Assembly: GCA_021404565.1 (NCBI GenBank)
Contig: JAAWWF010000001.1
Coordinates: 317,613 to 357,612 of the forward strand
Direction: 5' to 3'
Length of the DNA stretch: 40,000 nucleotides
From: Roseivirga sp.
GTDB lineage: Bacteria > Bacteroidota > Bacteroidia > Cytophagales > Cyclobacteriaceae
Part shown: in pieces, positions 5,155 through 14,215 of the stretch
Layout of the letters: every line of letters begins with the position of its first letter
Numbering within the stretch: the first letter of the stretch is position 1
Translations under genes and position numbers: made by a program
Notes under the pieces: model-generated
Database searches by the model: none
Seen by the model: only the letters and a program-made list of their open reading frames with translations
Told to the model about the DNA's origin: nothing

Positions 5155-5991
5155 TCACATTACAATAGAGTCAATCGGACTCTTGACCTTCACAATCTGA
5201 TCACTTGCCACATGGGTATAGATCATAGTGGTTTTTATCGAGTTGTGTCCAAGAAGTTTTTGGATAACCCTGATATCCGTTCCCCCTTCCAACAGATGGG
5301 TAGCAAAACTATGTCTTAGGGTATGCAGGGTGACTGGCTTTTGTATACCAGCCTTTTTTGTCGACCTTTTAACAATTTTCAGCGCGCTACTCCTTGAATA
5401 AGAGGCGGAAGTTTGTCCTTCAAACAAGTACTCACGAGGTTGATATTTCCTGAAGTATTCTCTCAGCAACTTCCTTAAATTTTCAGGGAACATCAGCTGT
5501 CTATCCTTTTTACCCTTAGCATTGTAAATAGTCACTACTCCCCTACTGCCATCCAGGTCCTTTACTTTCAATTGAATTAGCTCCCCCACTCTAAGTCCGA
5601 GGCTATATATGGTCACCAGAATTGCCTTGTGCTTTAAATTATCGGTTACTCTTATTAGTGATGTCACCTCTTGTTTTGACAGAACTACCGGCAGTTTAAA
5701 AGCTTTTCTGGTTACACTCAGAACTGAAAGTGATACCTGCCTGTCATAAACCAGCTTGTAAAATAGCTGTGTAGCCCCGATTACTTGCTTTTGATAAGCA
5801 TAAGACATCTTTTTATGATAGAACAGTGAAAAACACAAGTCCTGTAAAAACGTATCAGCCAGTCGGCTCCAATCTTTGAATTTGCCCGAATGTTGTAGCA
5901 ACCTCAAGGCATTGATATATACATTAATTGTATTGTGACTATAGCCTTTTATAGTCAATAGCTTTTCAAAATCCTTTAGTGTCTGAATCAT
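5155..5991 (-). CDS. tyrosine-type site-specific recombinase (XerD-like; IntI-like C-terminus but no IntI-type insertion)
   Basis: The catalytic set is visible: R in LGLRVGEL, K in AKGKKDR, HTLRHSFATH, LLGH, and Y in MIYTHV. The C-terminal tail is VKVKSPIDSI. The track starts at TTG 6012. I prefer ATG 5991 (MIQTLKDFEKLL), because the intervening codons coincide with an inverted-repeat arm. Confidence 0.85.
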   Translation of the reverse strand: MIQTLKDFEKLLTIKGYSHNTINVYINALRLLQHSGKFKDWSRLADTFLQDLCFSLFYHKKMSYAYQKQVIGATQLFYKLVYDRQVSLSVLSVTRKAFKLPVVLSKQEVTSLIRVTDNLKHKAILVTIYSLGLRVGELIQLKVKDLDGSRGVVTIYNAKGKKDRQLMFPENLRKLLREYFRKYQPREYLFEGQTSASYSRSSALKIVKRSTKKAGIQKPVTLHTLRHSFATHLLEGGTDIRVIQKLLGHNSIKTTMIYTHVASDQIVKVKSPIDSIVM

Positions 5992-5993
5992 AC

Positions 5994-6099
5994 TTCCGCA
6001 ATAACCAACCAAATCGGGGTCTTCTTAACCACAGCTAAAATAAACGGAATTATCTAATTTACTCACCTATATATATTAAAAAGATTGGTTATTGCGGAA
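5994..6099. repeat. 15-bp perfect inverted repeat (ttccgcaataaccaa / ttggttattgcggaa) with a 76-bp spacer
   Basis: Arms at 5994-6008 and 6085-6099 are exact reverse complements. The left arm lies 3-17 nt upstream of the preferred recombinase ATG. The right arm lies just upstream of the attI-like junction. Confidence 0.8.
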
Positions 6100-6104
6100 C
6101 TTTT

Positions 6105-6134
6105 GACCAAATTCCACATATAAACGAGTTGGCA
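6105..6134 (+). other. attI-like junction (gaccaaattccacatataaacgaG|TTGGCA)
   Basis: First occurrence of the CACAT..AAC..GTT junction, next to the recombinase gene. GTTGGCA (6128-6134) is the reverse complement of TGCCAAC at 6740-6746. Confidence 0.6.
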
Positions 6135-6149
6135 TTCATTGAAACAAAC

Positions 6150-6455
6150 ATGAAGTACTTAATTGACTTATCAGGAATGATCGACCTAGAAACATTCCAT
6201 GAGTATGTATCTAAGAAGCTCGACTTTCCAGCATATTATGGACAAAATTTTGATGCATTTTGGGACTGTTTGACTGATATGGATTCAAATTCAAAAATTA
6301 GAGTAGAAGGACTATCAGACTTGAGAAAAAATCTTCCTGATGCTTATGATAAATTAAAAAAGTGCATAGACGACTATCGAGAAGAATATGGACAAATTGA
6401 ATTCATGCTTTTTGAAGATAGCCCGAGCGGTGAAGGACTGATTAACAACGTATAA
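6150..6455 (+). CDS. barstar-family ribonuclease inhibitor (orphan immunity protein)
   Basis: KKLDFPAYYGQNFDAFWDCLTD aligns closely with the barstar core [23 protein letters not shown], recalled from memory. The size is also barstar-like. The track starts at TTG 6129, but ATG 6150 (MKYLIDL) is more plausible. No barnase-like gene is nearby. Confidence 0.8.
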   Translation: MKYLIDLSGMIDLETFHEYVSKKLDFPAYYGQNFDAFWDCLTDMDSNSKIRVEGLSDLRKNLPDAYDKLKKCIDDYREEYGQIEFMLFEDSPSGEGLINNV

Positions 6456-6602
6456 ACGCATGTAAGAACTTGTGTTCAGAAGTTGAATTGATGTATAATA
6501 TGGTTACGAGTATAGAGTTTTGGATGAGTCTCATGATTAAGCAATTAATTACTGAACTGTTAAAATTCAAGCCTATGAATATTTTTAAAAACATAATTGT
6601 CG

Positions 6603-6716
6603 GAGTGGGAGCTGTAGTGTGGGACCACAACATTATGACTTGTAGAATATTGTACGGAGAGACAGCTTATCAAGACGGCAGCGATGGGGGTTCGATTCCC
6701 CCTTCCCACTCTCTCT
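6603..6716 (+). other. tRNA-like acceptor/T-arm mimic; not a canonical tRNA
   Basis: Perfect T-arm ggggg-ttcgatt-ccccc at 6686-6702. It is followed directly by tcccactc (6704-6711), which pairs perfectly with gagtggga (6603-6610). The about 75 nt in between give no credible D arm or anticodon arm. Confidence 0.35.
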
Positions 6717-6739
6717 TGAAAACAAATAAAAAAACGAAA

Positions 6740-12479: not shown

Positions 12480-12541
12480 ACCACCTACCATACCATGTAA
12501 TACTGCGTTAAACGTATTTCACACTAAACCTTATAAGCAAT
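12480..12541 (+). other. attC-like site 8, ending ...ttcacactaaacc|TTATAAGcaat
   Basis: The junction is homologous to 12111-12128 (aacc..TTATA.GCAAT), but C replaces the usual G before TT. An internal hairpin is gtaatac...gtatttc. Confidence 0.45.
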
Positions 12542-12598
12542 ACAAAGAGAGGGTCAGGTTTCACCAGGGTTAGTAATTGCCAGCATTATTCCATTCTA

Positions 12599-13201
12599 CT
12601 ATTTCTGTTTCACACATCTGACGCTAAGAGCATAGAACTTGGGGACACTACTTCGGTATATGGCACCTGTATCATTTCTAATATCACGATGCAAAGCGGA
12701 CTTTAAACTCGTTTCGGTGCTTAGCCAAAATGCAGACCTCTGCCCTCTGCGGTCATAGGATCCATTTGGCCTTCTGTAACCTGATATAGTTGCATTGAAC
12801 TTTAAATCCCCACCAATTCTAAGACGTTCACCTTGAGAAGTTCCCCTGAATTTTTCATTTAATAATTCACTTTCCGGGATTCCAATAACTTTCTCAAGTT
12901 CCAACCAATCTGAATCACTTGAAAGCCTCCATCCATCAGGACAAACTTTACAGGCATCGTACCAGGTATAAAGTCGTCCGTTTTTATCACAGTCATTCAG
13001 GTCATCATCATAACACCAGCTTGAATCTGTTTCAAAGGCAAGGTTTTCAGCCATCCAGATCTGTCCATCAATTTCTATCGTTTGATAAATTCTTCCATCA
13101 CGCTCATCAGTAAAAACTCCTTGCTCCTTTTTTGTACAACTGATTGAAAAAGACAAAACAGTGAGCGTCACTAATACAATTATCCGATCCATAAAGCTCA
13201 T
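12599..13201 (-). CDS. FISUMP (Fibrobacter succinogenes major paralogous) domain lipoprotein, inverted relative to the array
   Basis: Lipobox-like LSFSISC. Family pattern: GRIYQTIEIDGQIWMAENL, GRLYTW, CPDGWRLSSDSDW, GYR..NG, FWLST. Confidence 0.8.
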   Translation of the reverse strand: MSFMDRIIVLVTLTVLSFSISCTKKEQGVFTDERDGRIYQTIEIDGQIWMAENLAFETDSSWCYDDDLNDCDKNGRLYTWYDACKVCPDGWRLSSDSDWLELEKVIGIPESELLNEKFRGTSQGERLRIGGDLKFNATISGYRRPNGSYDRRGQRSAFWLSTETSLKSALHRDIRNDTGAIYRSSVPKFYALSVRCVKQK

Positions 13202-13261
13202 TCTATAGTTTCAAGATGAAAATATGCTTATCGTCTTATTTACGTGAACTGTTGTACTTCG

Positions 13262-13440
13262 GATACTATTCAAACTCTCTCCTCCTCGCAGGCAACGAAG
13301 AGGCAAATCACGGAGAATCTCCATCTTTATTTCGTTAAGTTTAATCTCAAAGACAAAACTTTGGCTACCGCCCGTGCGGCTGAACAGGACAGTGCCCTAC
13401 CCTTCCCGCGCTACACATAGCCAGAACGTAGGACGCAAGC
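13262..13440 (+). repeat. family-1 repeat copy C, ending agaacGTAGGACgcaagc
   Basis: Collinear with copies A and B. The left half is near-identical (ctctcctcctc..gcaacgaagaggcaaatcacggagaatctccatctttatttcgttaa). The junction triplet is GTA rather than GTT, and no clear xxxxAAC start box is present. Confidence 0.65.
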
Positions 13441-13469
13441 AGAAAAACCAAATAATGTAGCATTGATTT

Positions 13470-14171
13470 ATGAATACTTCTGAGATAATAGAGTTACTCG
13501 AAGAACATCGCAATGAGCGTGGTATTGATCATTGGAATAGATTGAACCCGGAACCTGATAGCTTGAAGAGCTTTGGTATTGGGTTGACTGTCTTGCGCAA
13601 ATTGGCAAAGAAGCTGGGACGAGATCATGAGTTGTCCAAAACGCTATGGGAGAGTGATATTTATGATGTCAAGGTACTTTCTCTGCTGATTGATGATCCT
13701 AAGTTGATGAGCGTGGAGCAAGCAGAATCTCAGGTAGACCACCTGTATAAGGGGCATCTGGCACACGTGTTTTCATCCTGTGATGCAGCCCTGGCTAAAA
13801 CCTCATTTGTGGTCCCTCTTTTAATGAGTTGGATCAACAGCAATAACACTATTCGTAAGCGATGTGGATATGGTCTGCTCTATGAGGTTTCAAAATTCAC
13901 TAAAAAGAGTGCTCCTGACAACTCATTTTTTTTGGATAGAATCGAGCAAATTCAAAATTCATTCAGGGATGAGAAGAATATCATCAAACTCGCCATGGCC
14001 GGGGCACTCCTGGGTATTGGCAAAAGAAATGTAGCATTGAATTCAGCGGCACTCGCTGTTGCTCAACAAATGGGCCCCGTTGATGTCAATTCTGGTGTAA
14101 CCAATTGTGAGCCCTTTGATATTGTCAAGCATTTGACAAGCGATTACCTTAAGAACAAGCTTAACGTCTGA
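13470..14171 (+). CDS. DNA alkylation repair protein (HEAT-like repeat, AlkD/AlkC-related family)
   Basis: 233 aa. The N-terminal pattern (EEHRNERGIDHWNRL...FGIGLTVLRKLAKKLGRDHELSKTLWESDIYDVKVLSLLIDDP) matches the DNA_alkylation family as I recall it. Confidence 0.65.
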   Translation: MNTSEIIELLEEHRNERGIDHWNRLNPEPDSLKSFGIGLTVLRKLAKKLGRDHELSKTLWESDIYDVKVLSLLIDDPKLMSVEQAESQVDHLYKGHLAHVFSSCDAALAKTSFVVPLLMSWINSNNTIRKRCGYGLLYEVSKFTKKSAPDNSFFLDRIEQIQNSFRDEKNIIKLAMAGALLGIGKRNVALNSAALAVAQQMGPVDVNSGVTNCEPFDIVKHLTSDYLKNKLNV

Positions 14172-14184
14172 CAGGTCACATATT

Positions 14185-14215
14185 CTGAGAACAATTCTTT
14201 AACAAGGCTTATAAC
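14185..14215 (+). other. terminal cluster of xxxxAAC boxes (cTGAGAAC, TTTAAC, CTTATAAC)
   Basis: CTTATAAC (14208-14215) is the reverse complement of GTTATAAG and matches TTATAAG at 12531-12537. No downstream GTT junction occurs before the convergent gene's stop at 14234. Confidence 0.45.

Follow-up and report, generated by a model that had tools for sequence, protein, structure and literature searches.

Can genes be captured as cassettes, in the way that integrons capture them, by a tyrosine recombinase that lacks the insertion specific to integron integrases (IntI)? This question is raised by an island of low guanine-plus-cytosine (GC) content in the genome of Roseivirga sp., which lies within a stretch of 40,000 nucleotides (nt) that we analyzed as a whole and refer to as the window. 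To our knowledge, integrons are regarded as the sole cassette-capture machines that operate on folded single-stranded sites. In integrons, the IntI-specific insertion contacts extrahelical bases of the folded attC site, and it is considered essential for reading such sites. On comparative grounds, we put the probability at about 85% that the island is a chromosomal integron-like gene-capture platform consisting of a non-IntI recombinase, attC-like sites, and one attI-like site.

An original prediction, made from this DNA alone, had described a minus-strand tyrosine recombinase facing a run of mostly plus-strand open reading frames (ORFs). This arrangement stands, as the protein is a member of the Phage_integrase family and 11 plus-strand and one minus-strand ORFs lie to its right, forming about 8-9 co-oriented cassettes.

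Results

Junctions of the array and the complementarity of cassette ends

The recurring junction of the original prediction, which is built around GTT, was placed at positions 6128, 6793, 7557, 8505, 9760, 12117, 12530, and 13428. All eight bear the expected sequence with some deviations: at 7557 the GTT is present and the accompanying CACA and GCA are both absent, and the last two read CTT (12530) and GTA (13428) in place of GTT. Regular expressions for the composite motif matched the plus strand of the island three to seven times, its minus strand never, and the other ~32 kb of the window zero to two times, so that the motif is not found at similar density elsewhere in the window. Dinucleotide shuffles of the island gave means of 0.06-0.46 matches, and none of 300 shuffles equaled the observed count. 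Cassette ORFs had been expected to begin 18-52 nt after a junction; the distance from the junction G to the first ORF base is 22, 26, 23, 34, 18, and 42 nt in six cassettes, and the expectation fails for the cassette that begins with YCII (95 nt). The embedding of stop codons in boxes ending in AAC was seen correctly (CACTAAC at 7445-7451 and TCATAAC at 9075-9081), and in six of the nine plus-strand cassette ORFs the stop is TAA with C, AC, or AAC after it. So was the presence of three intergenic sites from one repeat family (8354-8515, 9608-9770, and 13275-13446), which is ~165 nt long with a mean column identity of 79%.

When an integron cassette is circular, the R' box of its attC site is completed by the cassette's own first bases (TTRRRY), which pair there with its own R'' box. 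The rule that we tested on the island is the corresponding one, i.e., that the first nine nucleotides of a cassette, G followed by TTNNNNNN, are the exact reverse complement of the 9-mer NNNNNNAAC that opens its own 3' site. In cassette 1 (numbering as in Table 1), which starts with TTGGCATTCA from 6129 and ends with CACAGAACG at 6785-6793, GTTGGCATT (6128) and AATGCCAAC (6738) agree at 9/9 positions. The agreement is 8/9 between GTTAGTGGG and CTCACTAAC (7444) in cassette 2 and between GTTACCACT and TGTGGTAAC (8344) in cassette 3, with eight contiguous positions in the latter, and again 9/9 between GTTATGAGC and GCTCATAAC (9074, at the stop codon of a SUKH-like gene) in cassette 4. The R'' box lies over the ORF stop in cassettes 2 and 4, 6 nt past it in cassette 3, and ~280 nt past the Barstar stop in cassette 1. 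When the 9-mers of other junctions were used instead, none of 56 comparisons was perfect. A ninth junction at G 11582 is at best a weak, degenerate candidate, as its potential R'' box (TCAGATAAC, 11477) matches at only 7/9 positions and folding gives no support.

These pairs correct the original prediction on one point. Because an AAC lies 0-2 nt from the GTT, the spacing had been judged non-canonical for attC sites. That AAC is the conserved unpaired spacer of the right arm, and the true partner of the GTT is the box at the left end of the site, namely the same AAC box that had been noticed at the stop codons; the spacing is therefore attC-like after all.

A scan with one genome per species gave 80 loci with homologous recombinases (34-51% identity), mostly from Flavobacteriales, Cytophagales, Chitinophagales, Saprospiraceae, and Bacteroidales. 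A site profile built from the conserved right arm (...AAAtCCGCaACT..CATAgcC.AAACC, followed by GTT nnnn GCAA) produced 70 matches. Sixty-six of them lie downstream of homologous recombinases and are co-directional with them, often in runs of 5-9 with cassette-like spacing, two are the window's own, and two are strays. Among 74 cassettes in 19 loci of relatives, the cassette's own 9-mer was matched at 9/9 positions in 53 (72%) and at ≥8/9 in 82%, compared with 0.36% and 6.2%, respectively, for the 9-mers of other junctions, and with 4% and 11% for that of the neighboring cassette, which is the partner in array context. The perfect matches hold 40 distinct variable hexamers, and in 48 of the 53 the next GTT is 124-130 nt from R''. 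By inspection, the rule also chains from cassette to cassette in other site families, in L024 (Paludibacter) and L045 (another member of Bacteroidales), in L052 (Flavobacterium selenitireducens), in L072 and L006 (between them one member each of Prolixibacteraceae and Flammeovirgaceae), and in the Chryseobacterium plasmid L179. As judged from these matches, the complementarity of a cassette's own ends is the R''/R' rule of integrons. It points to circular cassette intermediates with a crossover at GTT, each cassette being a circularly permuted unit cut between G and TT. The pairing spans the ORF rather than staying within an intergenic element, and it is explained only if the ends of each unit were once joined.

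This property bears directly on the idea of a static island, in which the intergenic repeats would be elements of the repetitive extragenic palindrome or miniature inverted-repeat transposable element (MITE) type, or terminators, unrelated to the recombinase. The three copies of one ~165-nt repeat, the degenerate distal sites, and the array-context folds that do no better than shuffles (see below) would all fit such an island. However, MITE ends pair inside the element, whereas here the pairing is with a junction ~1 kb upstream, across an ORF, at 72% for a cassette's own end and 4% for its neighbor's. Moreover, the repeats occur only beside homologous recombinases and in fixed orientation, and polymorphism is seen at the attI GTT. 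We find a static island scarcely credible.

Folding and covariation of the sites

For a consensus fold, 44 related sites selected for 9/9 R boxes were written in circular form and aligned. Their common fold starts with a 9-bp R stem and an internal loop that is asymmetric (3 nt opposite ~6 nt); a 6-bp L stem (GTGTAT/ATACAC or variants) comes next, and then mismatches, further short stems, and a variable loop that often carries a hairpin of its own. The L stems, which were not selected for, are paired at 96.6% and 92.0%, with 12 of 14 pairs altered on both sides. Overall pairing amounts to 95.9%, compared with 69.1% in shuffles and 25-38% with the partners slid, and RNAalifold yields the same fold independently.

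The original prediction had called for the sites to be folded as single-stranded DNA, and the outcome depends on the register. In the circular register, S1 folds at -13.0 kcal/mol (z = -3.70), S2 at -16.4 kcal/mol (z = -1.88), and S3, for the circular frame only, at -22.9 kcal/mol (z = -2.33) into a hairpin that the R stem closes. In array context, the intergenic sites fold no better than shuffles (z ~0; S1, -7.8 kcal/mol, z = -0.93; S2, -9.2 kcal/mol, z = +0.38). The latter folds are uninformative because they are in the wrong register, the 3' box in the array belonging to the next cassette. The covariation of the 44 sites and the circularized S1-S3 thus agree with attC-like imperfect palindromes that have AAC and GTT cores and form hairpins.

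Paired arms of this kind might also be read as duplex binding sites in a double-stranded exchange of the Xer/dif type, as in pdif modules. Such an exchange would suit a recombinase without the IntI insertion whose scores resemble those of XerA or XerD, and the conservation of the right arm (CATAgcC-AAACC-GTT) over large distances fits duplex recognition better than it fits attC sites. However, the paired boxes are 55-190 nt apart rather than 6-8 bp, no 28-30-bp dif-like core is visible, and the stems co-vary even though the sequences differ among site families. The hairpins are significant in the circularized register only, with which a cruciform in duplex DNA would still be compatible. Dimer resolution would involve one 28-30-bp dif site per replicon and the housekeeping XerC/D proteins; the island has at least eight sites in 8 kb, each 55-190 nt long. 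We judge an exchange of the Xer/dif type to be unlikely.

The recombinase

The open frame of the recombinase reaches TTG 6012 (ORF 5155-6012), and its likely start is ATG 5991. The protein scores below the cut-offs of the IntI and Xer models: 203.6 for NCBIfam XerA_Arch (cut-off 220), 194 for the IntI model TIGR02249 (265), and 138 for PRK15417 (435), as well as below those of XerC and XerD; TIGR02249 and PRK15417 each matched in two stretches. Its closest solved relative is the integron integrase VchIntIA (2a3v), with which residues 15-187 align to 9-181 and residues 211-280 to 248-317, leaving VchIntIA residues 182-247 unaligned opposite only 23 residues of the query. The protein thus lacks about 43 residues of the IntI insertion, a segment whose absence the original prediction had recognized. 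The motifs GLRVGE, KGKKDR, HTLRHS, LGH, and IYTH align with motifs of the catalytic region of 2a3v (IntI4). On this alignment, the recombinase is a Xer/IntI-like 'simple' tyrosine recombinase without the IntI insertion. A large subfamily of longer recombinases (350-470 aa; e.g., L045 9074-10717) has an N-terminal extension of 100-200 residues that is absent in the window protein.

The kinship with VchIntIA, the 194 bits against TIGR02249, the AAC and GTT boxes, the R''/R' rule, and the attI-like site could together indicate a canonical integron that standard criteria have overlooked. Nevertheless, the scores for TIGR02249 and PRK15417 are far under the cut-offs and come in two stretches around the ~43-residue gap, and the recombinase is co-directional with the array in most relatives. 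In addition, IntegronFinder surveys find almost no integrons in Bacteroidetes (PMC9024848), Bacteroidota being treated as essentially integron-free (also bioRxiv 10.1101/2024.07.02.601686), and none are found in Elizabethkingia (PMC11523902). A canonical integron is accordingly a very improbable explanation.

The attI-like site and variation beside it

A single attI-like site lies beside the recombinase at the head of the array (6102-6130), and the crossover is inferred at its GTT (6128-6130). The core ATAyAAACGwGTT recurs upstream of the recombinase in L082-L088, as in the window, and the core ATATAAAC-NN-GTT is found 85-135 nt past the recombinase stop in 24 species. Altogether, 25 species loci have an attI-like core next to the recombinase, with the core downstream in 24 of them and upstream in the other. 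There are thus two layouts with the same attI-like site: a co-directional one in most relatives, as in rAID-1 (see below), and a divergent one in the window clade, as in classical integrons. The recombinase, the attI core, and the own-end rule recur in Flavobacteriales, Cytophagales, and Bacteroidales and on one plasmid.

The region between the recombinase gene and the attI-like site carries inverted-repeat arms at 5994-6008 (TTCCGCAATAACCAA) and 6085-6099 (TTGGTTATTGCGGAA), which bracket a 76-nt spacer with a third CGGAA box between them. L082, L083, and L088 retain the repeat, in which a G/C change on one arm is compensated on the other (TTCCGGAATAAC ... GTTATTCCGGAA); the divergent clade shares it as a 12-15-nt inverted repeat around the spacer, with one position altered jointly on both arms. 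It may be a binding site for a regulator or for the recombinase in an accessory role. An invertible promoter (inverton) at the 15-nt repeat was considered and not adopted, as no contig has the alternative orientation.

Three metagenome contigs from different samples (L084, L085, and L086) encode the same recombinase protein (P0002), which is 79% identical to that of the window. Over the stretch that each covers, L084 and the other two have the same DNA through ...ATATAAACGTGTT, which ends in the attI GTT, and are unrelated beyond it; the sequence is shared through ...TTATATAAACGTGTT and continues with GGGCACAATTT in one contig and ATGTGCCATTT in the other two. The original prediction had expected presence/absence differences to break between G and TT. 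In these relatives the break falls exactly after the attI GTT, and the polymorphism is seen in them rather than in the window strain. A metagenome scan for close relatives gave a top match of 46% identity and so added no within-species comparison.

Contigs with close recombinases stop 58-410 nt upstream of the gene, near or just past attI; L083 is the exception and extends ~690 nt across one cassette. In the sample of the window strain itself, assemblies break at 6099-6117 (the attI site), at 9733-9757 (just before GTT 9760), and at 11531-11555, and the flanks assemble as contigs of 14.8 kb and 45.7 kb. The YCII and sigma factor pair of the window also stands directly after a junction in L094, at 80% and 55% amino acid identity and among different neighbors, although the two recombinases are only 51% identical. 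The other window cassettes have no homologue in the ~180 fetched loci.

Cassettes, cargo, and flanks

The features of the island are listed in Table 1. The boxes of its first four cassettes are intact; the more distal cassettes have decayed. Cassettes 1-3 are also intact as whole units, and those of the VOC protein, the 114-aa ORF, the reversed lipoprotein, and the AlkD-like protein have degenerate boxes.

Table 1. Coordinates of the island and its components in the window.
Feature	Position	Strand	Content
Island	5155-14215		Low GC; recombinase, attI-like site, and cassette array
Tyrosine recombinase gene	5155-5991	minus	278 aa from ATG 5991; Pfam Phage_integrase 1e-41
Recombinase-attI intergenic region	5994-6099		Perfect 15-nt inverted repeat at both ends
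attI-like docking site	6102-6130	plus	Core ATATAAACGAGTT at 6118-6130, i.e., ATATAAACGA followed by GTT; same core in relatives
Cassette 1	6129-6793	plus	Barstar-family immunity protein 6150-6455 (Pfam Barstar 1.7e-21); hairpin site S1 6738-6793
Cassette 2	6794-7557	plus	Secreted 210-aa protein 6819-7451; site S2 7444-7557, R'' CTCACTAAC over stop codon
Cassette 3	7558-8505	plus	Secreted NADase_transloc (F5/8 type C) protein 7580-8338 (PF25302 4.1e-54); site S3 8344-8505
Cassette 4 (composite)	8506-9760	plus	SUKH-like 8539-9081; 154-aa membrane ORF 9116-9580; long-family site 9581-9760
Cassette(s) 5	9761-12117	plus	YCII 9855-10208, extracytoplasmic function (ECF) sigma factor with DUF6596 10205-11473, PhnB/VOC 11634-12062 (Pfam); ends in second attI-like copy
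Cassette 6	12118-12530	plus	114-aa ORF 12135-12479; short degenerate site ending CTT
Cassette 7	12531-13428	gene minus	Fib_succ_major lipoprotein 12599-13201 (PF09603 1.4e-29); long-family site ending GTA
Cassette 8	13429-14215	plus	DNA alkylation repair (AlkD-like) protein 13470-14171 (PF08713 7.6e-11)

In cassette 1, ~280 nt of non-coding or ORFan sequence separate the Barstar gene from S1; this stretch includes a 95-aa ORF without a family (6470-6757), which may not be a gene. Neither the 210-aa protein of cassette 2 nor the 114-aa ORF of cassette 6 has a match in Pfam, NCBIfam, or PADLOC, and the 154-aa membrane ORF of cassette 4 is likewise an ORFan. The site of cassette 3 is a member of the long (~165-nt) repeat family. 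The SUKH call in cassette 4 is based on SMI1_KNR4 at 7.8e-5, which is under the Pfam cut-off. This cassette is a composite, in which the R'' box (9074-9082) opens a left half-site only (9074-9119), the right half being missing and the remainder fused to the membrane ORF; over 9079-9119, this half-site shares 78% identity with the left half of S2. Cassette 6 has no R'' partner (best 6/9). By inspection, GCTTAT at ~13227 in cassette 7 matches the six variable bases of its own 5' end, with the AAC lost. Cassette 8 has no intact R''/R' pair (6/9), and its gene is followed by a degenerate terminal remnant that adjoins the convergent flanking gene.

GC content is 0.35-0.41 across positions 5001-14000 compared with 0.44-0.48 on both flanks, and it is back at the flank level beyond ~14000. 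The flanks hold housekeeping genes, namely those for ApbE and a GFO/IDH/MocA oxidoreductase on the left and for MG2/Plug and DUF4249 proteins on the right. The oxidoreductase gene lies 3' of the recombinase and is convergent with it, and the array lies upstream of the recombinase on the opposite (plus) strand. AccA, encoded at 462-1406, is 100% identical to AccA of a metagenome-assembled genome of Roseivirga sp. and 96-99% identical to that of further Roseivirga genomes (P0284-P0289); the host is thus a marine member of Cytophagales and not a gut member of Bacteroidales. Scans of the window for tRNAs and Rfam families returned nothing beyond one 17-nt match (6686-6702, GGGGGTTCGATTCCCCC) inside the long non-coding part of cassette 1. 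It is a hairpin resembling the T-arm of tRNA or tmRNA (Rfam tmRNA, E = 0.0017, far under the gathering score) and may be the remnant of an integration site.

The heterogeneous cargo that had been predicted (immunity-type, secreted or membrane, VOC, and DNA alkylation repair proteins) agrees with the Pfam matches, although only about two of the 12 ORFs, Barstar and the weak SUKH, are of the immunity type. This proportion matters for the view that the array is a plain rAID-1 member, i.e., a recombinase-associated orphan-immunity array directed against contact-dependent toxins. In the accessible text of the original reports, rAID-1 is defined by a XerD-like recombinase, low-GC short co-oriented genes, and motifs 'reminiscent of integrons' (bioRxiv 10.1101/471110; 10.1101/2025.05.03.651265), and its recombinase must share 44% identity or more with BF9343_RS08045 of B. 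fragilis (bioRxiv 10.1101/471110). The window fits in its GC content, which lies within the rAID-1 limit for a cluster (≤41% and skewed relative to the genome), in its conserved repetitive junction motifs, and in the Barstar and SUKH cargo. Two Bacteroidales relatives, L024 (Paludibacter) and L045, combine the co-directional layout with the own-end rule.

Several properties of the window speak against plain membership. In the accessible account of rAID-1 in gut Bacteroidales, the recombinase is co-directional with the array (Ross et al. 2019, bioRxiv 10.1101/471110), at least two genes lying downstream; the window recombinase is divergent from its array instead of 5' of it and co-directional. 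The host belongs to Cytophagales, and the cargo is not mainly orphan immunity genes, the rest including a sigma factor and VOC, AlkD-like, and secreted proteins. In the arrays of relatives, no Pfam family could be assigned to 13 of 20 ORFs, and none of the 20 belongs to a recognized immunity family. Searches seeded with a Bacteroidales homologue returned environmental proteins and Proteiniphilum only, with no named Bacteroides protein. The original prediction was right in that rAID-1 is the closest described system, and the analogy is less apt with respect to orientation, host, and cargo. Plain membership is a doubtful reading, albeit one to be taken seriously. Rather, as the two co-directional Bacteroidales relatives obey the own-end rule, rAID-1 is probably the gut-Bacteroidales branch of the same system.

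A number of observations concern the cassette pool of related arrays. In the window strain's sample, the first cassette of a sister array (L082 1627-2676, Roseivirga sp.) encodes a CAP12/PCTIR TIR-domain protein of the anti-phage defense type, which suggests that the pool also includes defense systems. Genes for group II intron reverse transcriptases lie within arrays, opposite to the cassettes, at L094 5388-6962 and L179 16534-17850. The latter array occupies 9770-20800 of a plasmid of Chryseobacterium sp. SNU WT5 (NZ_CP041688.1), after a homologous recombinase and an attI core (ATATAAACAA followed by GTTGGGAAA). It has one cassette with Crp/Fnr and RidA genes, whose R'' box lies directly past the RidA stop, an IS110, and repeated ORF-less mini-units (GTTGGGAAA ... 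TTTCCCAAC). In F. selenitireducens (L052 18492-19340), tandem ORF-less units of ~342 nt carry GTTACTTGC and its complement GCAAGTAAC ~158 nt apart and look like empty cassettes amplified in the array. Downstream of the recombinase, two other plasmids of Flavobacteriaceae that carry it (L178 and L180) show neither an attI-like core nor cassette pairs that chain.

On the Acinetobacter baumannii plasmid p29FS20-1 (L177 4516-7415, NZ_CP044520.1), an N-terminally truncated recombinase homologue (46.6% identity over residues 43-274) stands upstream of tet(X5) and estT and is co-directional with them, beside ISVsa3/ISCR2. A junction-like sequence (cgtatagccactt followed by GTTATGTGC) precedes the tet(X5) start by 18 nt, and inspection of 10 kb surrounding tet(X5)-estT revealed no R'' box of the matching type (GCACATAAC, the partner of GTTATGTGC). 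Many other Acinetobacter plasmids gave similar recombinase matches, as matches only. From its sequence context, the tigecycline-resistance gene tet(X5) may have been acquired from an array of this kind in Flavobacteriaceae.

Discussion

A proposed model of cassette movement

The organization of the island allows us to propose how its cassettes could move. A cassette would be the unit TT-N6 ... ORF(s) ... N6'-AAC - spacer - L'' ... L' - spacer - G. Upon excision as a circle, its last G would join its own first TT-N6 to create a GTTN6 box (R'), which could then base-pair with the N6'AAC box (R'') that opens its own 3' site. The resulting imperfect hairpin would have a 9-bp R stem, an asymmetric unpaired spacer, a mismatched L stem, and a variable loop. 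The recombinase would exchange strands at the invariant GTT, so that recombination of a folded site with attI leads to insertion and that of two sites to excision. Small accessory genes, most of them without a known function, would make up the cargo pool, including those for toxin-immunity proteins (Barstar and SUKH). Catalysis by this particular recombinase, a single-stranded substrate, the exact nucleotide of exchange, and current activity of the array are all inferred from the sequence comparisons.

Several points weigh against reading the island as an integron-like platform. Its support is wholly comparative, as no excision circle, empty site, or recombinase activity has been observed. Pairing of the R stem in the 44-site alignment is a given, since 9/9 agreement was the criterion by which the sequences were chosen, and the covariation could also stem from cruciforms or from symmetric recognition of a duplex. 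The absence of the IntI insertion means that a hairpin substrate is not guaranteed. Within the window, cassettes 5-8 have degenerate boxes (6-7/9), CTT or GTA for GTT, and one reversed gene. Exact GTTN6/N6AAC pairs also arise by chance in the island, three of five being at non-junction positions, and the statistic for the window alone consequently rests on the junctions having been specified beforehand. Contig breaks at sites can result from repeats common to the genomes of one sample. Lastly, a second attI-like copy (TTCGCCCAAATTCCACATATCAACCTGTT) at 12091-12119, at the end of the VOC cassette, shares 83% identity with 6102-6130, including an exact core of 15 nt, and it is not accounted for by simple insertion or excision of cassettes. 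It also qualifies the statement that the array has a single attI.

We are inclined, if only slightly, to a broader proposal, in which Bacteroidota would own a phylum-wide equivalent of the integron. It would consist of short Xer/IntI-like recombinases without the insertion, hairpin cassettes, and a crossover between G and TT into an attI-like site, in both layouts and on chromosomes as well as on at least one plasmid. Accordingly, rAID-1 would be one specialized branch of it, and the xerD-tet(X) units that now spread on Acinetobacter plasmids may be a fragment captured from an array of this kind.

Comparison with known systems

In searchable full texts, which leave subscription journals outside the coverage, we found no account of such arrays in Flavobacteriia or Cytophagia. 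The accessible text of the rAID-1 papers defines no crossover, circular-unit rule, or hairpin and describes a system confined to Bacteroidales and to immunity genes (10.1101/471110; 10.1101/2025.05.03.651265); that of the 2025 paper terms the mechanism of rAID 'biogenesis' unresolved (10.1101/2025.05.03.651265). What the present locus and its relatives add is the full cassette logic together with an insertion-less recombinase, across several orders of Bacteroidota. If the phylum-wide equivalent is real, cassette recombination through single-strand hairpins either evolved twice or predates the IntI insertion. The construction of rAID arrays in the human gut, the need for the IntI insertion in hairpin recombination, and the origin of integrons all become testable questions. 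From a practical point of view, the own-end rule is a simple, annotation-free delimiter of cassettes, which could help to mine the large and mostly uncharacterized accessory gene pool of marine, soil, and gut Bacteroidota. It could likewise serve to examine whether tet(X) and similar resistance genes moved out of Flavobacteriaceae in cassette form.

In the pdif modules of Acinetobacter plasmids, the sites are 28-bp XerC/XerD duplexes of alternating orientation, on which the housekeeping Xer proteins of the host act. These modules resemble the island in that discrete accessory-gene modules are bounded by tyrosine-recombinase sites and exchanged between replicons. In contrast, the sites described here are 55-190 nt long, of the hairpin type, and in direct orientation, and they are served by a recombinase of their own, encoded alongside, and by one attI-like site. 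Polyimmunity loci share with the island tandem, same-strand, strain-variable immunity genes, sometimes beside a XerC/D-type recombinase (Zhang, Iyer, Aravind et al. 2012, PMC3482391), which has been proposed to help immunity genes accumulate (PMC3482391). However, those loci were defined by gene content, without sites, boundaries, or a mechanism (PMC3482391), and the window cargo is broader. With rAID-1, the island has in common the XerD-like recombinase, the low-GC array of short co-oriented genes, the conserved intergenic motifs, the SUKH-type immunity cargo, and the phylum, and the Bacteroidales relatives have the rAID-1 layout itself while obeying the own-end rule; the divergent recombinase, the marine Roseivirga host, and the mostly non-immunity cargo set the window apart.

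The differences from integrons lie in the recombinase, which has no IntI-specific insertion and fails the IntI models, in R boxes of 9 nt with six freely varying positions, in a strongly conserved right arm, in the position of the recombinase upstream of the array and co-directional with it in most members of the family, and in the hosts, Bacteroidota, where IntegronFinder detects almost nothing. Group II intron reverse transcriptases, present in some of the arrays described here, are a shared feature, as group IIC-attC introns occur in integrons and target attC (PMC3001079). The correspondence extends to the overall plan, in which one tyrosine recombinase and one docking site serve co-oriented cassettes of mostly one ORF, to a cargo dominated by small proteins of unknown function, and, in the window, to the divergent orientation of the recombinase. 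It extends as well to the architecture of the sites, imperfect palindromes with AAC and GTT outer boxes, an unpaired spacer, a mismatched inner stem, and a variable loop, and to the completion of the GTT-side box by the first bases of the cassette itself, which makes the units of both systems circularly permuted.

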